DNA of 64,000 bases from Alphaproteobacteria bacterium. GTDB lineage: Bacteria > Pseudomonadota > Alphaproteobacteria > UBA2136 > UBA6156. Of this stretch, positions 6,083 to 46,357 are shown piece by piece; the first letter of the stretch is position 1; the number at the start of each line of letters is the position of its first letter. The notes below the pieces were generated by a model, which was given only the letters and a program-made list of their open reading frames with translations, made no database searches and was not told where the DNA came from. The stretch lies in NCBI GenBank assembly GCA_027485835.1, contig JAIXQG010000002.1:880681-944680 (forward strand), read 5' to 3'. The position numbers and the translations under genes are program-made.

Positions 6083-6385
6083 ATGAAGACGTTTTTGCGG
6101 CAGGTGTGGAGCGGCAGCTGGATGTTGTTTTGGAGCGGTATGCTGGTGTGGCTGGCGTATGGCATCTGGCAAGGGGGTTGGTGGGTGGCCACGCACAAAT
6201 GGGAATTGACCGGTTTGGCGATTGTGGCGTTGGCTTTGGTACCGTTGCTTTCGGCGTGCCATGGTGCTTGGCTGGCGGTGCAGATTTTGCTGGGGAAGAC
6301 CAGCCCGCGGATGGCGCGGCGGAAGTTTAGAAACGGGATTGCGGATGTGTTGATGTATAGCAAAACGGGGCTCTGGAAAGAGTAG
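6083..6385 (+). CDS. Small membrane protein, hypothetical
   Basis: 100-aa ORF with two hydrophobic helices. Confidence 0.3.
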   Translation: MKTFLRQVWSGSWMLFWSGMLVWLAYGIWQGGWWVATHKWELTGLAIVALALVPLLSACHGAWLAVQILLGKTSPRMARRKFRNGIADVLMYSKTGLWKE

Positions 6386-6402
6386 GTTTGTGGCTGATTG
6401 AA

Positions 6403-6579
6403 GGCGCGAGCTAAAACGGCGCCATAGCACTTTTTCGCGTGGCTTATGTACCTTCGTTTTTGTACACCGCGCCACGCGAAAAAGCACTCTGCCACCGTTT
6501 ATAGCCTCGCGCGCAGGGGCTTCCGTGCTTTGCACTGTTGGCGCTGGGAGAGCTATGCGCTGAGCGCATATCTCGCGCC
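6403..6579. repeat. MITE/REP-like intergenic repeat, copy A. Conserved ends ggcgcgRgctaaaa ... tttatagcNNcNcgNgNgggg, with internal hairpins.
   Basis: Shares terminal motifs with copies at 10889-11020 and 46199-46334. Internal perfect inverted repeat gcactttttcgcgtggc / gccacgcgaaaaagcac. Confidence 0.55.
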
Positions 6580-6681
6580 AAAAGGAATGCCTGCGGCATG
6601 GGTTGGGTAGTTTAGGGGCACGGGGCTTTGTTTTTTGTGGCGGATTGGGGTAGTCTGGGAGCAAGAAAAAAGGGTTTGGCG

Positions 6682-7710
6682 ATGAACGGCGGTAAGATTG
6701 AATTTGAGGGCGATGAGGCGGATATTGTGGCCACCAGCTTGCTGCGCCGCGACCTGCCCGTGGTGATTGCCGGTACCGCCAGCCAGAGTTTGGGTGAAGA
6801 AATTGCGTGGGGGCTTGGCGGCTACGTTCACCCCGTGACCGTGGAGCGCTTTGCCGATGGTGAGATTGGCGTGGAGCTGGGTGCCAGCGTGCGGCGGCGG
6901 AATGTGTTTATCGTGCAGAGCCTGTACCGCCCGCAGGAGCACCTGATGGAGCTGATGCTGCTGATTGATGCGTGCCGGCGTGCCAGTGCTGCGGAAATTA
7001 CGATTGTGGTACCGTACCTTGCCTATAGTAGGCAGGACCGTAAGGCGCGCTTGCGCAGCCCGATTTCGGCCAAGGTAGTGGCGCGGATGCTGGAGACCGC
7101 CGGTGCTGACCGGATTATGACCTTTGACTTGCACAGCGGGCAGGTACAGGGTTTTTACGAGATACCCTGCGATAACCTGCCCGGTGCGGAGATTTTGGCG
7201 CCGGTGGTCCAGCGGGCGTTGTTGGGGGATGATATCTGTTTAGTGGCGCCGGATGCCAGCGGTTTGGACCGCGTGCGGCATTTTATGAAGCGGCTGGATG
7301 CCGATGGTGATGAGCGGCCGGATGATTACCCTGTAGCGGTGGTGGACAAGCGCAAGGCCAAGCAGAACCTTGGCGCGGAAGCGGTGGTGGGGAATGTGGA
7401 CGGTTGCCACTGCGTGATTGTGGACGACATGATTGATACCGCGGGGAGCTTGCTGGCAGCTGTAAATGCGTTGCGGAGTGCGGGGGCGAGCAGCATCAGC
7501 ATGGTAGTGACTCATGGTTTGTTTAACGGCGATGCCTTGCGGGTGGTGGCCGGTGCGGGGCTGAAAAACCTGTGGCTGACCGACAGCGTGCCGGTGAGTG
7601 AGGACATTAAGAGCCTGCGCGGCGTGAAGGTGGTGAGTGTGGCGCCGCTGTTGGTGAAGGTGATTAAGCGGGTGAGTTTGGGGGATTCTCTCGAAGAAAT
7701 TTACAGTTAA
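6682..7710 (+). CDS. prs: Ribose-phosphate pyrophosphokinase
   Basis: RFADGEI, VRRRNVFIVQS and DDMIDTAGS motifs. Confidence 0.9.
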   Translation: MNGGKIEFEGDEADIVATSLLRRDLPVVIAGTASQSLGEEIAWGLGGYVHPVTVERFADGEIGVELGASVRRRNVFIVQSLYRPQEHLMELMLLIDACRRASAAEITIVVPYLAYSRQDRKARLRSPISAKVVARMLETAGADRIMTFDLHSGQVQGFYEIPCDNLPGAEILAPVVQRALLGDDICLVAPDASGLDRVRHFMKRLDADGDERPDDYPVAVVDKRKAKQNLGAEAVVGNVDGCHCVIVDDMIDTAGSLLAAVNALRSAGASSISMVVTHGLFNGDALRVVAGAGLKNLWLTDSVPVSEDIKSLRGVKVVSVAPLLVKVIKRVSLGDSLEEIYS

Positions 7711-10169: not shown

Positions 10170-10870
10170 TGGATTATAAGCGTATTGTTGTGAAGGTTTC
10201 GGGCGAGCGATTTGCCGGAGACCAGCACGAAAAGGTATTTGATGTCCACGCGATTGAAGACATTGCCGGTGAGATTAAAGCACTGGTGGACATGGGCATT
10301 CAGGTAGGCGTGGTAATTGGTGGCGGGAACATTGTGCGTGGTAAGGAAGCCGCCGCCGCCGGGATTATTGCCGCCCAAGCCCACCAGATGGGGATGCTGG
10401 CGATTGTGATTAACGCCCTTGCGCTGCAAAGCGTGCTGGAAGGCCAAGGCGTGCAAACCCGCGTGATGAGCGCGTTGACGATTGATACTGTGGCCGAGCC
10501 GTATATTCGTCGTCGTGCCATGCGCCATATGGAAAAGGGCCGCGTGGTGCTGTTTGCCGCGGGGATTGGGAACCCGTTCTTCAGCAGCGACACGGCTGGT
10601 GCGTTGCGCGCGATTGAGATCGGTGCCGAGATTTACGTCAAGGCCACCAAGGTGGACGGCATTTACACCGCCGACCCCGTGAAGGACCCGAATGCCAAGC
10701 ACTTGGCGGACATCAGCTACAAAGACGTGTTGGTGGACGACCTGAAGGTAATGGATGGCGCGGCGATTTCTCTCTGCCGCGAGAACCATATGCCGCTGAT
10801 GGTGTGCAAGGTGGGTGATGTGGTCAAAGCCCTTAAGGGTGAGGCGAAGTGCACCATTGTGCATGAGTAG
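10169..10870 (+). CDS. pyrH: UMP kinase
   Basis: IVVKVSGE ... GGGNIVRG ... FAAGIGNPFFSSDTAGALRAIEIGA. Confidence 0.95.
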   Translation: MDYKRIVVKVSGERFAGDQHEKVFDVHAIEDIAGEIKALVDMGIQVGVVIGGGNIVRGKEAAAAGIIAAQAHQMGMLAIVINALALQSVLEGQGVQTRVMSALTIDTVAEPYIRRRAMRHMEKGRVVLFAAGIGNPFFSSDTAGALRAIEIGAEIYVKATKVDGIYTADPVKDPNAKHLADISYKDVLVDDLKVMDGAAISLCRENHMPLMVCKVGDVVKALKGEAKCTIVHE

Positions 10871-10888
10871 GCTTAGGGGCTGATTAAC

Positions 10889-11020
10889 GGCGCGGGCTAA
10901 AACACTCCCCCAGCACTTCTTGGCGGGTCTGAAATACTCTCTTGTATTCGGCGCCCCGCCAATAAGCACTGGGATGAGCGTTTATAGCTCCGCGCGCGGG
11001 GGCAACGGCGCGTGGCGCCG
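10889..11020. repeat. MITE/REP-like intergenic repeat, copy B
   Basis: ggcgcgggctaaaacactcccccagcac ... tttatagctccgcgcgcggggg. Confidence 0.55.
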
Positions 11021-11077
11021 TGTTTTTTTAGGGCAGGTGGGTTGTGGCGTTGGGGTGTGAGGCGTAGAAGGTTGGGT

Positions 11078-14207: not shown

Positions 14208-14461
14208 GGACCTAACATAGCGGGTTGGGGGGTTGATGGCTAGGCCATCGCATCCCATAATAGCACCATGAACATAAGGCTATCTGGTAAAAGACTGATA
14301 CGACCTGAACGGGCTGAAAATGCGTCTGGATTCTGCTTTGCTTGGCGTCAAATAGTCCCCGCTATTAGCCGCCAATCCCAACACAACCAGTCGCCTTTTC
14401 ATCTCCGTCATCTCGCACCAGCCTTTCACCAGATAACCTTTCCTTACTGGTGTTGACTATG

Positions 14462-15115
14462 CGGGAGGTGCCTGACATGAACGGCGCTTCCCCTCCAAGC
14501 GTACCTGCGCACGTGTTTAACAGCCACCGCACGCTGCTGTTGAATGCCGATTATTCTCCCTTTAGTTACCCGCTGGAGCCGCTGAACGCGGAAGATACGA
14601 TTAAGGGCCTGTGTTTGGGCCGTTATGTGGTGGTGGAGTGGAGCGAGACGTTTGCGCATAGCCCGAGTTTGGAAATGCGGTTACCGAGCGTGGTGGCGGT
14701 GAAGGAGTATGTGACCGATGCGGGGCTGTATGGGGTGCCTGCGTGTAATATCGGGAACCTTTACGTGCGGGATAAGGGCCTGTGCCAGTACACGGGGCGG
14801 GAGCTGAAGCTGCATGGCGCAGGGACGCATACGCTGGCGACGATGGACCATGTGATCCCCAAAAGCCGGGGCGGGTTGCTGACGTGGGAGAATACCGTGT
14901 TGGCCAGCCAATACGCCAACAATGCCAAGGGCGATAAAAGCCTGAAGGATTTTGGGATGCCGCTGCTAAACACGCCGTGGGTGCCGCGGGGGGGGGATTT
15001 GCTGTACTTGTGGCTGACCGAAGAGCGTTTGGCCAGTTTGCCGCAAACGTGGCATGCGTTTTTGCAGGTGGTGCCGACACCTGCGCTGCGGCGGGTTTTG
15101 GAGGCGGCGGCGTAA
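14462..15115 (+). CDS. HNH endonuclease-domain protein
   Basis: DHVIPKSRGG..TWEN ... NNAKGDKSL HNH motif. Native-like codon usage. Confidence 0.7.
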   Translation, partial: REVPDMNGASPPSVPAHVFNSHRTLLLNADYSPFSYPLEPLNAEDTIKGLCLGRYVVVEWSETFAHSPSLEMRLPSVVAVKEYVTDAGLYGVPACNIGNLYVRDKGLCQYTGRELKLHGAGTHTLATMDHVIPKSRGGLLTWENTVLASQYANNAKGDKSLKDFGMPLLNTPWVPRGGDLLYLWLTEERLASLPQTWHAFLQVVPTPALRRVLEAAA

Positions 15116-20804: not shown

Positions 20805-20836
20805 AAAAAGGCGCCGGAGACCGGCGCCTTTTCGTT
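20804..20836. terminator. Bidirectional hairpin terminator, copy 1 of the repeated palindrome ggcgccggagaccggcgcc
   Basis: Hairpin flanked by an A-run and a T-run. Identical to the copy at 21743-21773. Confidence 0.7.
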
Positions 20837-21740: not shown

Positions 21741-21774
21741 AAGAAAAAAGGCGCCGGAGACCGGCGCCTTTTTG
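21741..21774. terminator. Hairpin terminator, copy 2 of the ggcgccggagaccggcgcc palindrome
   Basis: gcaagaaaaaaggcgccggagaccggcgccttttt. Confidence 0.7.
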
Positions 21775-22219: not shown

Positions 22220-22253
22220 AAGAAAAAGGCGCCGCGGGGTGCGGCGCCTTTTA
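22220..22253. terminator. Hairpin terminator, variant copy 3 (ggcgccgcggggtgcggcgcc)
   Basis: gcaagaaaaaggcgccgcggggtgcggcgcctttt. Confidence 0.65.
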
Positions 22254-29234: not shown

Positions 29235-31071
29235 GCTTTTTGGCTTAGCAATAATGCTAACAGTGGGGCTGATGCCCCGCTTTGGCATTGCTGAGATTGT
29301 GCAGGAAAAGCTGGGGGCTGATGGGTTTCCAGTCAATTGGAAGGCTTCGGATTTTGCGGTGGGTGAGGTTTCGGCGACGGAGGCAGTGAGTGCCTCGGCT
29401 GCCCGTGTGAACCGTGCTCAGAATGGCTGGAATACCGATGCGGTGGGTGTGCTGAAGCCCGGAAAAGGCGGTTTAGCGCCGGACCTGTGGCGGCAGATGA
29501 GCCGAGCCGAGGCGGAAGTGGCGTTGCAGCGGTCTCTCAGTAAAGGTGGCGCGAGCCCCGCCTTGAAAGAGGCGTGGCGTGTTGTGTTGCTAACAGCTGC
29601 GGCGCCGCCGTTGATGCCGGAGCGTGGCACGATCAGCAGTTGGTTGGCGGTGCGCAGTGAGGCGTTGGATAAGCTGGGCCTGCAGGAAGCGGCATGGGCG
29701 ATGTGGCGCGAGGTTCCGGTTGAGGATTTGGGCGCGGACGAGGCCAGCCAATTGGCGTGGGTGAAACTGCGCATGTTGGCGGGGGATGGGGAAACCGCGT
29801 GTGCCTTTGCCAAAGCCGAGGCCGTGAAAGAAACGATGGGCAACCGCTGGGCGCCGGTGATGGCGGCGTGCCAGTTGGTGGGGCAGGGGAAGAATCCGGC
29901 TTCGGTGCAATTAAGTTTGCAGGTGGTGGAGCCGCAGTTGAAAGCGGAGAATCCGTCTTTGCTGCGGATACTTCAGGCGGTGACCGAGGGGCGGGTGGTG
30001 AGCTCGCTGCCGAATGGGAATATGAATATTGATGCGTTGGGAGGCTCGGTATTGGGACAATACCCTGCACTGATGGGGGCGGCGATACTGCCGCGCGTGC
30101 CGGACCTTGCGTTGCGGCGGGTGGTGAAGAGTGCGGAATTGCCGATGGATGTACGGGGGCAGGCGGCAGTAGCGCTGGCAGGGCAAAGCGGGTTGCTAGA
30201 CGATGGCGTGTTGGCGTGGAGCTTGGTGAGTGGCACCCAGTTGGCGGGGGATTTGCCGGACAGTGTGGTGGTGGCACGCGGGGCGAAGGTTTCGGAGAGT
30301 GAGGTAAAAGACTATGTAGAAGCGGCGCTGCGCATGGGGTTGGTGGACGACGCGGCGAAGGCCATGACGACATGGGGAGCGCCGAGCCCGACGGTGGCGG
30401 CGGCGGAGATGCGGCGCCATGTGCAGGCGCGGTTGGCGGTTCAGCTTTTGCAAGGGCGTGTGGCGGAGGATGTGTGGGATGAGTGGATTGTGGCGCAGAC
30501 GTTGGAGAACGGTGTAGGAGCCAAACAGGCTCAGCGCACATTGCTGGTGGCAGAGGCGTTGGGGGTTGCGGTGCCGCAGCGGATTTGGAGCCAGATGCGC
30601 ATGCGCGCCGTGCCGGTAAGTGTGGCGGTAGACCCCGCGTGGCAGCGCCTGTTGGCGGATGCCGTGGCCAAACGCAATGTGCCGCAGGTGATGTTGTTGT
30701 TGAGTGAAGCGTGGAATGGTCAGCCCGTAGCCGATGTGGCGCCGGTTGTGGCGGGCGCGAGTGTGGAGGCGTTGCGGCGGGTTGGGTTTGAGGCGATTGG
30801 GCGGCGGGTGGCGGCGGAAGCGTTGCTTGGTTTGCCGCGTAAGCCGCTGGTGGCGTTGCGGCCGGAGGGGACGTTTGGTGGAGAGGCGATTTCGTCTACC
30901 GTGTTGCCAACTATGGCGCATGATGCGAGCCGGACGGTGGTGCGCGGGCTGAATTCGGTGGGGTTGGCACCGAAGGTGAGTGAGAGTGGGTTTATATTGC
31001 CGCCGCCGCGTGTGGACGCCCCCAAAGTGACGGCGCCGACCAAGCCGACGCCGCCACGGATGGATAATTAA
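29215..31071 (+). CDS. Large Ala/Leu-rich secreted or periplasmic protein (618 aa), hypothetical
   Basis: Signal peptide. Helical composition. Immediately upstream of xerD. Confidence 0.55.
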   Translation: MCRLSFKLFGLAIMLTVGLMPRFGIAEIVQEKLGADGFPVNWKASDFAVGEVSATEAVSASAARVNRAQNGWNTDAVGVLKPGKGGLAPDLWRQMSRAEAEVALQRSLSKGGASPALKEAWRVVLLTAAAPPLMPERGTISSWLAVRSEALDKLGLQEAAWAMWREVPVEDLGADEASQLAWVKLRMLAGDGETACAFAKAEAVKETMGNRWAPVMAACQLVGQGKNPASVQLSLQVVEPQLKAENPSLLRILQAVTEGRVVSSLPNGNMNIDALGGSVLGQYPALMGAAILPRVPDLALRRVVKSAELPMDVRGQAAVALAGQSGLLDDGVLAWSLVSGTQLAGDLPDSVVVARGAKVSESEVKDYVEAALRMGLVDDAAKAMTTWGAPSPTVAAAEMRRHVQARLAVQLLQGRVAEDVWDEWIVAQTLENGVGAKQAQRTLLVAEALGVAVPQRIWSQMRMRAVPVSVAVDPAWQRLLADAVAKRNVPQVMLLLSEAWNGQPVADVAPVVAGASVEALRRVGFEAIGRRVAAEALLGLPRKPLVALRPEGTFGGEAISSTVLPTMAHDASRTVVRGLNSVGLAPKVSESGFILPPPRVDAPKVTAPTKPTPPRMDN

Positions 31072-31072
31072 G

Positions 31073-32017
31073 ATGGCTGCAACGCCTGTTATGTTGGAAG
31101 AGGCGGCGCGCGAGTGGCGGGCTTATACGGAGTATCTGACCGTGATGAAGGGGGCGAGCCCGAACACGGTGGCGGCCTATGGCCGCGATATTAAGGATTT
31201 TTTAAGCTACGTGCAGACCGTGCCTGCGGAGGTAAGTGTTGCGGATGTGGAAGGTTGGATGGTAAGGCTTTCCAAAAACGAAAACGGTGCGCGTAGCGTG
31301 GCGCGGAAATTGAGTGCCGTGCGTGGCTTTTACCGGTTTTTGATGGAGCGCGGCTGGGCGAAAGATGACCCGACGGAGACGGTACCTTTACCGAAACTGC
31401 CGCAAACACTGCCGAAGGCGTTGAGTGTTGCCGATGTGAAAAAGCTGTTGCTGGCGCCGTTGGGTAGTACGCCCGCGGAAGTGCGGTTGCGGCTGATCAT
31501 TCAGCTTTTGTACGCGACCGGCTTGCGGGTGAGTGAGCTGTGTAACTTGACGCTGGATGCGGTGGCGGATGGCGATGGCGTTGTGCTGCGTGTGACGGGG
31601 AAGGGTGGCAAAACCCGCATGGTGCCGCTGGGTGATGTGGCGGCGCATACGTTGCGGGGCTATTTGAATGATGCGCGCCCGAAAATGCGCGGCAGCACCG
31701 GCCAGTGGGTATTTGCTAGCCCCGATGGGCACACGCCGCTGACGCGGGTGCGGGTGTTTCAGCTTTTAAAGGAGGCGGGGCAACGCGTGGGGGTGGAGGT
31801 GGCGCCGCACCACCTGCGCCACACCTTTGCGACCCACCTGCTGCAAAATGATGCGGATTTACGCGCGGTTCAGGTTATGTTAGGACATGCCAGCTTGAAC
31901 ACGACGCAGATATATACGAAAGTCGCCGGTGAGCGATTGAGAGAGACCTTGGAAAAACATCACCCCCTGAGTAATTCTAAGCTGGGCGCGGCCTCCAAAC
32001 GGAGTGGCACGCGCTAA
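31073..32017 (+). CDS. xerD: Tyrosine recombinase XerD
   Basis: HHLRHTFATHLL...LGHASLNTTQIYT. Confidence 0.9.
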   Translation: MAATPVMLEEAAREWRAYTEYLTVMKGASPNTVAAYGRDIKDFLSYVQTVPAEVSVADVEGWMVRLSKNENGARSVARKLSAVRGFYRFLMERGWAKDDPTETVPLPKLPQTLPKALSVADVKKLLLAPLGSTPAEVRLRLIIQLLYATGLRVSELCNLTLDAVADGDGVVLRVTGKGGKTRMVPLGDVAAHTLRGYLNDARPKMRGSTGQWVFASPDGHTPLTRVRVFQLLKEAGQRVGVEVAPHHLRHTFATHLLQNDADLRAVQVMLGHASLNTTQIYTKVAGERLRETLEKHHPLSNSKLGAASKRSGTR

Positions 32018-34403: not shown

Positions 34404-35834
34404 ATGAAAATGAATCTTTCTTTGCGCGCGTTGCTGGGTTTCTCGGTTGTGGCTGTCTTATGTTTGGCCAATGAGGCGCGTGCGGCGGACGGCGGTGAAA
34501 CCACGACGATGGCGGATGGTTCGGAGCAGTTGAACAAAGCGGCGGAGCAGGCCACGGAGTGCCAAAAAGCCATTGCTGAGGTAAATGAAGCCTTAGAAAA
34601 AGGGCGATATGAACGTGCGGAAACCTTGAAGAAGAAGAAGGATGCGATTTGTGAGCAGACGTATTCCGCTGAGAAAGAGAATTTGGCGAAAGAGAAGCAA
34701 GTAGAAGCTGAAAAAACGGAAGAGACTCTTCCTGCCGCTGCCAACCCTATGGGGGCTGATGCCCGTAATCAAGACGCTTACAATCCGCCTAAAAATATTA
34801 TGATTAATGGCCAGGAGATGAGCTGGGCGAAGTATGAAAGTTTCCGCCAGGTTGGTGAGAGTTATGGATTTAGCGATCAGCAAATTGCCGGTATTGCGGG
34901 GCGCTTACAGGTAGAAAGTAATGCGTTTAGCCCTACTAAAGATGGCTCTACCGCGGTAGGTGATGGAGGTACGTCGTTTGGTCGTGCGCAATGGCACAAA
35001 GAGCGTGGTACCGCGATGGCTAACTACGTAAACCAGATGCGTGCGGAACGTGCGGATGCGAATAATACGAGCTATAACCAAGCGAACTTGTCGCATAACG
35101 GTAAAACGGCTAGTGGTTTGAAGTTTTCTGCGTTTGACCAAAATAACTATATTTTCAAAGAACTTCCGAGCCAGATGTCGAAGTCGAATTACGCCGCGCT
35201 GAAGAGCACGACGTCGGCGGAAGAAGCGGCGCGTATCTTTACGAAGTATTATGAGCGTCCGGCTAACCAAGCCGGGCAAGCCTGGGGGCTTGCCGGTGGT
35301 AATGCTACGGCGGCTTTTGCGACGGGTTTAGCCAATACCAATGGAAATACGGTAGTGCCGGATATGGGGCAGTGGGGCTCGCGCCAGCTGGCAACTTATA
35401 ATAGTACCGGTGGTACGGGTTCGGGCGGTAGCGGGAGCGGTACTGGTGGTACGTCTGTTAATGATTTGATCTCTCAATTGTTGGGAGGTAATGGATCTTC
35501 CCTGCTAGGTGGGGGGAGTGGGAATTCTATTGCCGATGCGTTGAGCGCGTTGTTTGGTGGAGACGATTCCTCGGATTCGGATGATAGCTCGGACAGTGAT
35601 AGCGAGGATTCCGAGAGCCGTACGTTGGTTTCGACTGTGACGACGATTAACATCGACGGCAGTATCAAGACGGTCAAAACGTACTCGGATGGTTTGGTAC
35701 TGACGAGCCAGACCGCCAGTAACAGTGAAATTGCTGCGACGAATATCCAGAACTTCTGTGGTGTGGATAGCACCACCTCGACGGATGCGTTCATGTTGAT
35801 GATTGACGCGTGTGTCGCGGCATTTACGAGCTAG
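34404..35834 (+). CDS. Secreted modular peptidoglycan hydrolase. Signal peptide, conserved coiled-coil N-module, lysozyme-like domain (phage tail lysozyme-like motif), Gly/Ser linker, conserved C-module.
   Basis: GIAGRLQVESNAFSPTKDGSTAVGDGGTSFGRAQWH motif. N- and C-termini shared with the next gene. Low GC3. Confidence 0.7.
   Translation: MKMNLSLRALLGFSVVAVLCLANEARAADGGETTTMADGSEQLNKAAEQATECQKAIAEVNEALEKGRYERAETLKKKKDAICEQTYSAEKENLAKEKQVEAEKTEETLPAAANPMGADARNQDAYNPPKNIMINGQEMSWAKYESFRQVGESYGFSDQQIAGIAGRLQVESNAFSPTKDGSTAVGDGGTSFGRAQWHKERGTAMANYVNQMRAERADANNTSYNQANLSHNGKTASGLKFSAFDQNNYIFKELPSQMSKSNYAALKSTTSAEEAARIFTKYYERPANQAGQAWGLAGGNATAAFATGLANTNGNTVVPDMGQWGSRQLATYNSTGGTGSGGSGSGTGGTSVNDLISQLLGGNGSSLLGGGSGNSIADALSALFGGDDSSDSDDSSDSDSEDSESRTLVSTVTTINIDGSIKTVKTYSDGLVLTSQTASNSEIAATNIQNFCGVDSTTSTDAFMLMIDACVAAFTS
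34523..34684 (+). repeat. ~160-bp direct repeat (copy 1), >90% identical to 35997-36157. Encodes the shared N-module.
   Basis: Direct nucleotide comparison. Confidence 0.85.
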
Positions 35835-35852
35835 ATGGAGAAGGACAACGTC

Positions 35853-37298
35853 ATGATGTACCGGATAGGCAAGAATGTACAAGTTGGCATGCTGGCAATT
35901 GGGTTTGCGGCGTTGTTGAGTGTTGCGCATGCGGCACTTGACCCTGATGTAAGCGATTTTGATGCGAGCACGACTGCTGCTGCTGCAGATGGCGTGGAAC
36001 AGTTGAACAAAGCGGCGGAACAGGCCACACAGTGCCAGAAAGCCATAGCTGAAGTGAATGAAGCCTTAGAAAAAGGACGATATGAACGCGCGGAAACCTT
36101 GAAGAAGAAGAAGGATGCGATTTGTGAGCAGACGTATTCCGCTGAGAAAGAGAATTTACCTAAGCCTGAGACTAAGGAAGAGACTGTTCCGGCCGCTACG
36201 AACCCTATGGGTGCCGATGCGCGGGATAGTGAAAATTACTATCAGGAAGGTTTTGCCGGGCGTCAGCGCAATACCAAGGAAATGACCTACGTGACCTTTG
36301 AGGAAGCTAAAGATAAGAACCTGCCGTATGGTTGGACCGAAAGTACGCGTACCAGCGATTTTGGACCGCGTACATCTGTGCCGACTGCGAATGGAGGATT
36401 TTCTTCGAGTGACCACAAAGGTGAGGATTACTCGATTGGTGGGGGATTGACCGAAGGGACGGATATTTACTCCAACCAGAACGGTAAAGTTGTTTATGCG
36501 GGTGAAAAAGGTGCTTATGGCAAGACAGTTATTGTTGAGGACGACAATGGTAACCAGACCCAATATAGCCACTTGAGCGATATTAACGTGAATGTGGGAG
36601 ACAAGGTGACAACCGGTTACCAGATTGGTGATGCCGGTGCGACCGGGAACTCTACTGCTGCCCACCTGCACTATGGTGAGATTGCGAATGGCAGCTACGT
36701 GAACCCTGCCACCAGCAGTGGGATTAAGAATTACGATGTCGCTTCGGTCAATGCGTGGGCCGATAACTCGGTGGCTTCCGGCGGGTATTCGGCAACGGCT
36801 GGTAGCGGCGGCTCGACCGGAAGTGGTACGGGTGGTTCGGGTGTCAGCGCCAACAGTGGCTTGGGGAGCGATTTGATAAGCTCGCTGACTGGTAGCGGGT
36901 CGTCCAGTGGGTTTGAGTCTTTGATCCAGCAATTGTTCGGCGGTGGTTCTTCGGGTGGTAGCGGCGGTAGTTCTGAGACGGCATCTTCGGGTACCTCCGG
37001 CAGCTCGTCTGACGGAACGGCGGCGTCGGAGTTAGTGGTGAAAACGGTGACGGAAGTGGCCGCCAATGGTGATACCACCCGCACGACCACCTACGCTGAC
37101 GGACGCACAGAAACGCTGACGGTGAAGGCCACGGCAAGTACCAGCGAACAGTTGAGCGCCTTGCTGGTGTCGGTATTGGGTGAGGAAAAGGCTGTGAGTG
37201 TTATGGAATCGATTCAGGCACTGTGCGGCAGTAACCTTTCTACCAGCGCGGATGCGGACATGTTGAAGGTGAGCCAGTGCCAGTCGTCTTCGGTATAG
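35853..37298 (+). CDS. Secreted modular peptidoglycan hydrolase. Signal peptide, conserved N-module, M23 (LytM) metallopeptidase domain, Gly/Ser linker, conserved C-module.
   Basis: M23 motifs HKGEDYSIGG ... GKVVYAGEKGAYGKTVIVEDDNGNQTQYSHL ... AAHLHYGE. RBS GGAGAAGGA upstream of ATG 35853. Confidence 0.75.
   Translation: MMYRIGKNVQVGMLAIGFAALLSVAHAALDPDVSDFDASTTAAAADGVEQLNKAAEQATQCQKAIAEVNEALEKGRYERAETLKKKKDAICEQTYSAEKENLPKPETKEETVPAATNPMGADARDSENYYQEGFAGRQRNTKEMTYVTFEEAKDKNLPYGWTESTRTSDFGPRTSVPTANGGFSSSDHKGEDYSIGGGLTEGTDIYSNQNGKVVYAGEKGAYGKTVIVEDDNGNQTQYSHLSDINVNVGDKVTTGYQIGDAGATGNSTAAHLHYGEIANGSYVNPATSSGIKNYDVASVNAWADNSVASGGYSATAGSGGSTGSGTGGSGVSANSGLGSDLISSLTGSGSSSGFESLIQQLFGGGSSGGSGGSSETASSGTSGSSSDGTAASELVVKTVTEVAANGDTTRTTTYADGRTETLTVKATASTSEQLSALLVSVLGEEKAVSVMESIQALCGSNLSTSADADMLKVSQCQSSSV
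35997..36157 (+). repeat. ~160-bp direct repeat (copy 2)
   Basis: Direct nucleotide comparison with 34523-34684. Confidence 0.85.
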
Positions 37299-37677: not shown

Positions 37678-39084
37678 ATGGTAGAGCGTAAAGGGCCTGC
37701 AAAGGGCAAATTTGGTGGCGGTTTTTCGGGTCCGCGTGCAGGCGGGGCCGGTGGCGCCCGTGGTGGTTACAAGGCTGGTGGCAGCCGTGAAGGTGGGTTT
37801 GACCGTAAACCCCGCGAAGGTGGTTACGACCGCAAGCCGCGCGAAGGTGGTGAGCGTAGCTACGCACCGCGCGCCGATGGTGAGCGCAAGCCTTATGTAA
37901 AGCGTGAAGGCGGTTTTGACCGCAAGCCGCGTGAAGGTGGTTACGAGCGCAAAAGCTTTGGTGATGGTGAGCGTAAGCCTTACGTGAAGCGCGAAGGCAG
38001 CAGCTACGAGCGTAAACCCCGTGAAGGCGGCGAGCGTAGCTATGCGCCGCGTGGCGATGGTGAGCGTCGCCCTTATACCCCGCGTGAAGGCGGTTACGAC
38101 CGTAAACCGCGTGAGGGTGGTTACGAGCGCAAGAGCTTTGGCGATGGCGAGCGTAAGCCTTACGTGAAGCGTGAGGGCGGTTTTGACCGTAAGCCGCGTG
38201 AAGGTGGTTATGAGCGCAAGAGCTTTGGCGACGGCGAGCGCAAGCCGTATGTGAAGCGTGAGGGTGGGTTTGACCGTGCTCCGCGTGAAAACCGCGGTGA
38301 AGGCAAGCCGGCGAATTTTTCGGAAAAGCGGACCATCAAGCGCGACCGCAGCACCCCTGACGAAAAGCTGCTGATGGGTGGCGACGGCTGGTTGGTAGGT
38401 TACCATGCCGTGCTGGCCGCCCTGACCGCCGGCCGCCGCAAGGTGCGCAAGGTATGGCTGTTGAGCGAAGCCCAAGGCGAACTGGCGACCCTTTTGGAAA
38501 AGCACAGTGATTGGGATGTTGAGATTAAGTCTAAGCCCGAATTTGAGCGTGAGTTTGGCGATGTGGTTCACCAAGGTGTGGCCGCGCTGGTGGGTAACCT
38601 GCCGCAGCCGAGCCTGCCCGAGTTGCTGAGCAGCAAGCCGAAGCTGATTATCGCGCTGGACCAGATTACCGACCCGCACAACTTGGGTGCCATTGTACGC
38701 AGTGCGGCTGCCTTTGGCGCTGCTGGCGTGCTGGTGACCGAGCACCGCGCAGCTGGCCTGAACCTGACCGCTGCCAAGGTGGCTGCCGGTGCCATGGAAG
38801 TGGTACCCGTGGTGGAAGTGACCAACCTTGTGCAAAGCCTGACCATGATGCAGGAAGCCGGTTACACCGTGCTGGGTATGGCCGGTGAAGCCGAGACCGA
38901 GATTGGTGACGTGAACGCCAAGGGCCCCGTGTGCTTGGTGATGGGCAGTGAAGGCGAAGGCCTGCGCCGCCTGACCCGCGAAACCTGCGACACGCTGGTG
39001 AAGATTCAGATTTCTGCCGCCATGGAGAGTTTGAATGTATCTGTCGCTACTGGCGTCGCGTTGTCGATTCTGACCCGCAAGTAA
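37678..39084 (+). CDS. rlmB: 23S rRNA (guanosine-2'-O)-methyltransferase RlmB with a long N-terminal Arg/Gly/Glu-rich repeat extension
   Basis: C-terminal SpoU methylase domain (VGYHAV ... LDQITDPHNLGAIVRSA ... LVMGSEGEGL). The N-terminus has ~5 imperfect 29-aa repeats. Confidence 0.85.
   Translation: MVERKGPAKGKFGGGFSGPRAGGAGGARGGYKAGGSREGGFDRKPREGGYDRKPREGGERSYAPRADGERKPYVKREGGFDRKPREGGYERKSFGDGERKPYVKREGSSYERKPREGGERSYAPRGDGERRPYTPREGGYDRKPREGGYERKSFGDGERKPYVKREGGFDRKPREGGYERKSFGDGERKPYVKREGGFDRAPRENRGEGKPANFSEKRTIKRDRSTPDEKLLMGGDGWLVGYHAVLAALTAGRRKVRKVWLLSEAQGELATLLEKHSDWDVEIKSKPEFEREFGDVVHQGVAALVGNLPQPSLPELLSSKPKLIIALDQITDPHNLGAIVRSAAAFGAAGVLVTEHRAAGLNLTAAKVAAGAMEVVPVVEVTNLVQSLTMMQEAGYTVLGMAGEAETEIGDVNAKGPVCLVMGSEGEGLRRLTRETCDTLVKIQISAAMESLNVSVATGVALSILTRK
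37770..38290 (+). repeat. Tandem ~87-bp coding repeats (EGGYERKSFGDGERKPYVKREGGFDRKPR units)
   Basis: Visible periodicity in the protein and the DNA. Confidence 0.8.
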
Positions 39085-46198: not shown

Positions 46199-46334
46199 GG
46201 CGCGGGCTAAAAGCTCCCCCTGCGACGCTTCGCCAAAGCTCGTGTACTTCTTGTACACGTCGCTTCGTCTCATCCTCTCAGGATGAAGCTTTATAGCCTC
46301 ACGTGTGGGGCCTCATCAAACGTCGCTTCGCGCC
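46199..46334. repeat. MITE/REP-like intergenic repeat, copy C
   Basis: ggcgcgggctaaaagctccccctgcgac ... tttatagcctcacgtgtgggg ... ttcgcgccgg. Confidence 0.55.
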
Positions 46335-46357
46335 GGACTCTTGTCTTTCTGGTTAGG

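Follow-up and report, generated by a model that had tools for sequence, protein, structure and literature searches.

A 64,000-nt stretch of an Alphaproteobacteria bacterium (the window; contig JAIXQG010000002.1, positions 880,681 to 944,680, forward strand) carries several intergenic copies of a hairpin element, the first of which has its core hairpin at position 6403. These copies probably belong to a new family of selfish interspersed hairpin repeats that resembles repetitive extragenic palindromes (REPs), ERIC sequences, and miniature inverted-repeat transposable elements (MITEs), is built in the style of bacterial interspersed mosaic elements (BIMEs), and would be mobilized as single-stranded DNA (ssDNA). 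The core of the element, M1, is one long imperfect hairpin, and the optional modules M0, M2, and M3 around it form a BIME-like mosaic.

A sequence-only reading of the window had proposed three intergenic elements with common 5' and 3' motifs, and exact motif matches together with a covariance model confirm that these are homologous. The 5' motif GGCGCGRGCTAAAA occurs exactly in the window only at 6403 (copy A), 10889 (copy B), and 46199 (copy C), each time on the plus strand. An exact TTTATAGCYYCRCGYG lies 77-81 nt 3' of each occurrence, three such matches being found against 0.38 expected by chance. Aligned three-way, the copies have a mean identity of 67%. Their M1 hairpins (A, 6403-6513; B, 10889-10998; C, 46199-46306; all plus strand), score 116, 117.5, and 91 bits, respectively, with E values of 1e-28 to 1e-21, C being the most diverged of the strong copies. 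To these three strong copies, the number originally proposed, a fourth is added by a probable decayed M1 (copy D, ~14304-14417, plus strand; 20.3 bits, E 0.011), which retains residues matching the M1 landmarks (CGGGCTGAAAATGCG, AAATAG..CTATT, GCCGCCAA) and lies between two divergently oriented genes, a permease gene (minus strand) and an HNH gene (plus strand).

The family extends beyond the window. A pattern scan of species-representative genomes returned 10 true homologues in three alphaproteobacterial metagenome-assembled genomes (MAGs) and 4 chance matches, and a metagenome pattern scan added two further homologues; the pattern matches L001, L005, L008, L010, and L015 were judged by eye to be chance or unrelated and were discarded. 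When the covariance model was applied to 270 kb, made up of 19 related loci besides the window, 25 distinct strong copies were recovered at 81-131 bits, each palindrome giving an opposite-strand echo at 24-51 bits. As these copies are spread over the window and seven other assemblies or metagenome samples, the similarity is not confined to three loci, the outcome under which the sequence-only reading would have ascribed it to chance or local duplication. Local density is 0-3 copies per 20 kb. The nearest available relatives have PyrH proteins 83-94% identical to that of the window, and their nominal MAG labels include 'Blastochloris viridis' and 'Sphingomonas sp.'; the carriers of the family are a narrow clade of uncultured Alphaproteobacteria. 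One 19-kb MAG contig (D8) holds three copies that are 92-98% identical but have unrelated flanks, which points to recent amplification or conversion.

All 25 copies form an M1 hairpin spanning ~105-112 nt. Its conserved foot, (TAG)GGCGCGGGCTAAAAC / GTTT(A)TAGCC(T)CGCGC, contains two bulged bases on the 3' arm, followed by middle stems that differ among copies yet stay complementary, a conserved GCAC/GCAC internal loop, and a conserved apex of two forms, CTTATGTAC..GTACAC and CTGAAATAC..GTATTC. The palindromic centers noted before are part of a single fold. In the window, M1 reaches -54.7 (A), -60.0 (B), and -46.2 kcal/mol (C) on the plus strand (z -3.8 to -6.3) and -70.2, -68.9, and -52.7 kcal/mol on the minus strand (z -5.2 to -8.0). 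The outer GGCGCG...CGCGCC ends, previously taken for terminal inverted repeats (TIRs), were mis-paired: the 5' motif pairs with the 3' TTTATAGC..CGCGC and closes the one long hairpin, while the distal CGCGCC belongs to other modules; in B and C it is part of the M2 hairpin, and in A it lies at the end of M3. Likewise, the 17-bp perfect inverted repeat ascribed to copy A comprises 14 perfect pairs, the GCAC/GCAC segment holding two C.A mismatches.

Conservation of this structure is evident from heavy covariation among the copies. In the 25-copy alignment, which was fitted to the covariance model and therefore favors the structure, standard pairs occupy 93.6% of cells, compared with 79.8% after shuffling and 29-48% in slid register. 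Compensatory double changes occur in 29 of the 39 stem pairs (128 cells), and the main measures were reached by none of 500 shuffles. An independent MAFFT alignment evaluated with RNAalifold finds 22 of 45 pairs compensatory. In a DNA palindrome, such covariation could reflect selection for pairing in RNA or in DNA.

The copies hug stop codons. In 23 of 25 cases, a same-strand frame of at least 100 codons has its stop -12 to +25 nt from the foot, or 51 nt from it in copy C; the other two copies could not be scored in this way, as one lies at a contig end (L003) and the other follows yjdM (L028), which has only 71 aa and a called end 5 nt upstream of the copy. Among the 23 adjoining stops, 15 are TAG, against a rough background of ~29% (p = 3e-4), and a TAG is found close to GGCGCG, at -1 to +5 nt, in 13 of the 25 copies (p ~2e-11). 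This tag is GTAG in only six of the 25, other tags being ATAG, TTAG, and CTAG. At two copies, one behind the DLH gene of L028 and one in L017, the gene runs into the element and ends at the TAA of GCTAAAA.

The orientation of the element is strict. Each of the 25 copies, distributed over 16 loci, is on the G-rich strand, and at every locus the GC skew in element orientation is +0.15 to +0.28 (0.5^16 = 1.5e-5). Four loci have gene calls; of their 105 genes, 35 are encoded on the other strand, and none of these bears a copy (0.667^25 = 4e-5). As judged from the skew, the polarity thus appears to track the replication strand rather than gene direction alone. In the window itself, the skew is +0.18 to +0.26 on the plus strand in every 8-kb bin, unusually strong for Alphaproteobacteria.

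Comparison with relatives shows that gain, loss, and decay of the element occur independently of the genes around it. At site A, the window has an insert that L019, whose PyrH is 93% identical, does not have, and both flanks can be aligned. The empty site reads ...GGAGTAG|TTTAAGGGCA... with nothing in between, whereas the window reads ...AGAGTAG[225 nt ending GGGTAG]TTTAGGGGCA..., so that each junction carries GTAG. The outer ends of the insert (GTTTGTGG... / ...GGTTGGGTAG) are not inverted repeats. Behind pyrH (site B), L019 and L024 have no copy, while L021 has one that includes M3. The copies behind tsf (L021) and behind PMT_2 and DLH (L028) face empty sites in other relatives; here, the native terminator is replaced rather than split, and the flanks are not alignable, so that boundaries could not be set. 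At site C, L026 (outer membrane protein, OMP, 96% identical) has a deletion of the 5' 96 nt but keeps TTTATAGCC...M2, that is, the 3' foot and M2. Copy D lies inside a ~140-190-nt segment that L019 lacks. Polymorphism between strains, raised earlier as a check, is thus seen both as filled and empty sites and as partial deletion, and this is the behavior of an element that is dispensable and proliferates.

What occupies the site behind the pyrH stop varies among relatives: the window has copy B, L021 has M1 with M3, and L022 has another hairpin (6893-7030), which starts with GGTGCGGGCTAACGG after GAGTAG and contains CCCGGGTCTGGGCGGTC...GACCGCCGCAGCCCGGG. Further inverted repeats, GTCTCTCG.ATA.GAGAGAC and TGTCAGATATGACAG, occur next to small ORFs (open reading frames) at L024:1290-1420 and L026:2990-3090; they stand beside or in place of M1 copies and may be another small mobile or regulatory unit. 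The HNH endonuclease gene directly downstream of copy D (14477-15115, 212 aa) is probably unrelated to the copy, as the gene is conserved in L019, which has no insert.

Copy A is the one copy in the window that has M3. The empty site in L019 sets the whole composite insert, M0+M1+M2+M3 and a tail, at 6386-6610 (plus strand). The start of 6403 given originally is therefore that of M1, and the true insert exceeds the proposed 6403-6579 on both sides. On its 5' side stands the TAG stop (6383-6385) of a small ORF, and on its 3' side come the terminator and leader native to prs. This ORF, a conserved frame of 87-100 aa located between anmK and prs, is the gene 5' of copy A, so that the earlier placement after anmK does not hold. 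The M0 leader of copy A (GTTTGTGGCTGATTGAA, 6386-6402, plus strand) recurs in copy B, behind pyrH in L021, and behind yjdM in L028. The base of M1 in copy A is GGCGCGAGCTAAAAC / GTTT(A)TAGCC(T)CGCGC and its apex GGCTTATGTAC..GTACACCGCGCC. The hairpin is followed on the plus strand by M2 (6520-6537), a small hairpin GTGC-TTT-GCAC, and by M3 (6538-6601), which according to the consensus fold has three helices, TTGGCGC..[TATGCGC-TGA-GCGCATA]..GCGCCAAAAGGAATGCC-TGC-GGCATGG. Copy B has an M0 (GCTTAGGGGCTGATTAAC, 10871-10888, plus strand) that abuts the TAG stop of pyrH (10868-10870) and, 3' of M1, an M2 (11005-11030, plus strand), ACGGCGC-GTG-GCGCCGT followed by GTTTTTTT, the intrinsic terminator of the pyrH transcript. 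Copy C, with the M2 hairpin ACGTCGC-TTC-GCGCCGG at 46320-46336 (plus strand), has the terminator of the OMP gene itself on one side and the next terminator on the other.

M0 is a 17-18-nt leader (G[TC]TT..GGCTGATT.A.) 5' of M1 in copies A and B; in copy A, it joins with the TAG next to it and the TAA of GCTAAAA to place stops in all three frames. M2 is typically ACGTCGC-TTC-GCGACG, and several copies have T-runs 3' of it. In copy B alone, M2 (11005-11021) with its T7 scored as an intrinsic terminator. M1 as such lacks a T-run, and separate terminators downstream serve copies A and C. The terminator role proposed before thus applies to copy B, where M2 and T-run are of textbook form; beyond it, a terminator function is what we infer, and the elements might likewise stabilize mRNA. 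M3, a 64-nt module of the form TTGGCGC..hairpin..GCGCCAAAAGGAATGCC.GCGGCATGG, follows M2 in 7 of 25 copies including A, where its last hairpin and TCCTTTT are weakly terminator-like on the minus strand. A sigma-54 promoter on the minus strand of M3 was considered and rejected, since L004 and L013 do not keep the GG/GC spacing that fits in copy A.

A second hairpin family, M1b (L006:403-516 and L021:3819-3932, the latter after hpf), carries the apex of copy A (GGCTTATGTAC..GTACACCGCGCC) on a foot that differs from that of M1, CTG(G)AGCGGGGTG.../...CCCTCCCGC(T/C)CAG. The apex common to M1 and M1b may be a shared recognition core.

In the mechanism that we favor, a selfish, non-autonomous element would insert strand-specifically next to TAG. 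Most probably, it would pass through a hairpin of single-stranded DNA that forms on the lagging-strand template and is handled by a trans-acting enzyme of the HUH/Y1 type, as for IS200/IS605 and REP/RAYT. The TAG stops of leading-strand genes would be its main harmless targets. Exclusive use of the G-rich strand, co-orientation with the upstream gene, stop adjacency, and TAG enrichment would then all arise because insertion is single-stranded, occurs on the lagging-strand template, and takes place next to TAG. Parts of this scheme have precedent: IS200/IS605 elements move by 'peel and paste' on the lagging-strand template and insert 3' of a fixed tetranucleotide target with a bias in orientation (PMC5027513), and REPs of the GTAG type are found 3' of ORFs, to which they often contribute the TAG stop (PMC3733652). 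After insertion, the element would be co-transcribed in the 3' untranslated region (UTR) of the upstream gene, M1 becoming a very stable hairpin in the transcript and M2 being able to serve as a terminator. Any effect on the stability of the mRNA 3' end would be a side effect rather than the reason for the existence of the element.

Several observations weigh against this reading. The direction of replication is read from GC skew alone, and the right end and the target of the element rest on one case, since only the site A pair is cleanly alignable. No transposase was seen in the 64-kb window, for which the Pfam survey is partial at 20-64 kb and includes some ORFs that are shadow frames; in particular, neither a Y1 transposase nor an integron integrase was seen, the recombination-type genes in the window being XerD-like and HNH only. 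Furthermore, the minus strand of M1 gives the more stable fold in every one of the 24 copies tested, with means of -68.2 versus -55.1 kcal/mol (RNA parameters) and -37.7 versus -31.7 kcal/mol (DNA parameters). The strand inferred to lie on the lagging-strand template is consequently the weaker-folding one here, unlike in IS200/IS605. Among the modelled pairs on the plus strand, 34 A.C face 11 G.U, so that the asymmetry favoring the minus strand does not fit simply with the plus strand as the active hairpin.

The source of this asymmetry is narrow. Three columns beside two internal loops account for 18 of the 34 A.C oppositions, the ratio elsewhere being 16 to 11, and the conserved CA/AC loop adds further A.C oppositions. 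The excess is thus a conserved local feature and not a stem-wide trend. Mutation bias was rejected as its cause, as the G/T enrichment of the plus strand predicts the opposite sign. The loops can be read as A/C loops on the top strand or as tandem G.U/G.T on the bottom strand, and they are plausibly a signal for strand discrimination.

There is also a more specific, tentative proposal, which we consider possible but well short of probable: M1 may be the substrate of a novel ssDNA mobilization system that targets TAG stops of leading-strand genes. Its enzyme could be of the Y1/HUH type, or it could be a tyrosine recombinase acting on the folded bottom strand, as at attC sites, and the two A/C-versus-G.U internal loops and the two bulged bases would provide the strand-discrimination signal. 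If so, the family would place a hairpin element between the biology of REP/RAYT, IS200/IS605, and attC, and would install its own terminator modules behind housekeeping genes, thereby driving terminator turnover and synteny breaks.

As a less likely alternative, the element could be a functional cis-acting 3'-UTR RNA, a stabilizer, terminator enhancer, or protein-binding hairpin, that is selected in the sense transcript, with its spread being secondary. The copies are indeed co-oriented with the upstream gene and placed between its stop codon and an intrinsic terminator, their stems covary strongly, and M2 shows plus-strand G.U pairs, T-runs in several copies, and the scored terminator of copy B. 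However, covariation cannot tell RNA from DNA pairing, and in all copies tested the fold is weaker on the sense strand, which has A.C rather than G.U. Moreover, the orthologous sites behind the essential genes pyrH and tsf are empty in close relatives, copies decay, and the host genes are functionally unrelated. A 3'-UTR function would also give no reason to shun the third of genes encoded on the C-rich strand.

A classical MITE, an internally deleted insertion sequence (IS) of the DDE-transposase type that has TIRs, moves by cut-and-paste, and duplicates its target, is improbable, even though the MITE/REP-like repeat family of the sequence-only reading is genuine and apparently undescribed. 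Small size, multiple copies, presence/absence polymorphism, and complementary conserved ends are all MITE-like, and the GTAG found at each junction of copy A might represent a duplication of 4 bp. Yet the complementarity runs over the full length with compensatory changes instead of being limited to the termini, the outer ends of composite insert A are not complementary, and the one clean filled/empty pair displays GTAG at its junctions rather than a generic duplication. In addition, the build is asymmetric, with M0 at the 5' and M2 and M3 at the 3' side, the absolute strand polarity is unexpected for double-strand cut-and-paste, and no parent IS was seen in 270 kb.

Even further from likely is the idea that the hairpins are attC-like folded single-strand sites for a tyrosine recombinase, with gene and hairpin forming a cassette. 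The resemblance to attC sites, such as the VCRs, is considerable: it includes size, a co-oriented ORF directly 5', conserved ends around a variable center in which structure is kept over sequence, bulged bases on one arm, and a more stable bottom strand that would lie on the leading-strand template, as in sedentary chromosomal integrons (PMC5371416). The AAAC...GTTT of M1 also resembles RYYYAAC/GTTRRRY. Nevertheless, CTAAAAC / GTTTATA falls outside the R''/R' box consensus; the AAC/GTT pair varies in 4 of 25 copies; and the most conserved part (GGCGCGGG/CCTCGCGC) lies outside the expected R-box positions. The genes flanking the copies, rpoN, tsf, pyrH, and uvrC, are core housekeeping genes in synteny, with no integrase, attI, or cassette array. 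The sole recombinase of the window is a XerD-like tyrosine recombinase (31031-32017; recomb_XerD 311-313 bits), which stays far below the cutoff of the integron-integrase model (integrase_gron 114 versus 265 bits).

Independent small-RNA genes or minus-strand antisense RNAs are very unlikely: minus-strand folds that are 5-24 kcal/mol better with conserved tandem G.U, the weak minus-strand terminator-like site of M3, and the position of copy C between two terminators, like a separate unit, speak for them, but no promoter-like site was found around A, B, or C on either strand, no minus-strand terminator follows M1, Rfam gave no match, and the polymorphism and decay that count against a 3'-UTR RNA count here as well.

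The family appears to be previously undescribed, while the class to which it belongs, that of interspersed palindromes such as REP/BIME, ERIC, Correia, and PATEs, is known. In the window, no Rfam model matched at the gathering threshold, and the sub-threshold matches were generic hairpin or terminator models only. Insert A had no blastn match in plasmids and phages, viral contigs held no match to the pattern, and a literature search for the motif strings found none. Among the known families, ERIC/IRU of enterobacteria and Correia/NEMIS of Neisseria are imperfect palindromes of 100-150 nt that occupy transcribed intergenic regions, form long RNA hairpins within 3' UTRs, and are polymorphic between strains; both ERIC and Correia occur in both orientations, and Correia has defined TIRs and a TA duplication. 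The present family shares with them the size range of the imperfect palindrome, a probable 3'-UTR hairpin, and strain polymorphism, but it has no sequence similarity to either, is strictly polar, and abuts stop codons.

The likeness to REP/BIME and to GTAG REPs (Di Nocera et al. 2013, PMC3733652) lies in an extragenic location mainly downstream of ORFs, a TAG-containing sequence at the foot, here in 13 of 25 copies, that often provides the stop, mosaics with short modules, probable co-transcription, and proposed movement as ssDNA. REPs differ from M1, however, in size (20-40 nt compared with ~110 nt). The tag here is NTAG, the copies are single asymmetric hairpins rather than head-to-head dimers or REPINs, they have one polarity with respect to GC skew, and no RAYT was seen in the 64-kb window. 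Two more specific assignments were rejected: M2 is not a CGTC-tagged REP, as its CGTC is a paired part of the stem and as stem and loop differ in size from those of published families, and M1 is not a REPIN-type inverted dimer, as its arms are not palindromic themselves and the tag is present on the 5' side only. With IS200/IS605 and their transposase-less derivatives (PATEs), the family has in common the lack of TIRs, richness in hairpins, an apparent position 3' of a short fixed sequence, and the orientation inferred with respect to the lagging-strand template (PMC5027513, PMC6006769). IS200/IS605 elements have two short subterminal hairpins in place of the one 110-nt hairpin found here, and neither tnpA nor tnpB was found nearby. 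The distinctive features of the present family are therefore its strict replication-strand polarity, as inferred from skew, its close association with TAG stops, a covarying single hairpin of 110 nt, and add-on modules that include a terminator.

REP, ERIC, and Correia repeats shape 3' UTRs, terminators, and genome rearrangements. With polarity, stop adjacency, and covariation all readable from sequence, the family described here is clean material for studying how palindromic repeats move. It further serves to mark a clade of uncultured Alphaproteobacteria that is little studied and has an extreme GC skew, and it would be of practical use in strain typing; its ends can mislead gene callers at the 3' ends of genes.

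Other repeats occur elsewhere in the window. An ORF for an rRNA methylase of the SpoU/RlmB type (37678-39084) contains N-terminal coding tandem repeats at 37754-38290, with periods of 27, 87, and 180 nt and up to 4.7 copies, which encode an extension rich in Arg, Gly, and Lys. At 34404-37298, adjacent Phage_lysozyme2 and Peptidase_M23 genes have in common two direct repeats, of 173 nt (92%) and 78 nt (74%), located close to the 5' end of each gene and separated by 1.46-1.47 kb, which suggests a duplicated N-terminal module on two cell-wall hydrolases. Finally, two identical 28-nt palindromic terminators (AAAAAGGCGCCGGAGACCGGCGCCTTTT) are located 940 nt apart at 20805-20832 and 21745-21772, and a third, 71% identical, is found at 22225.

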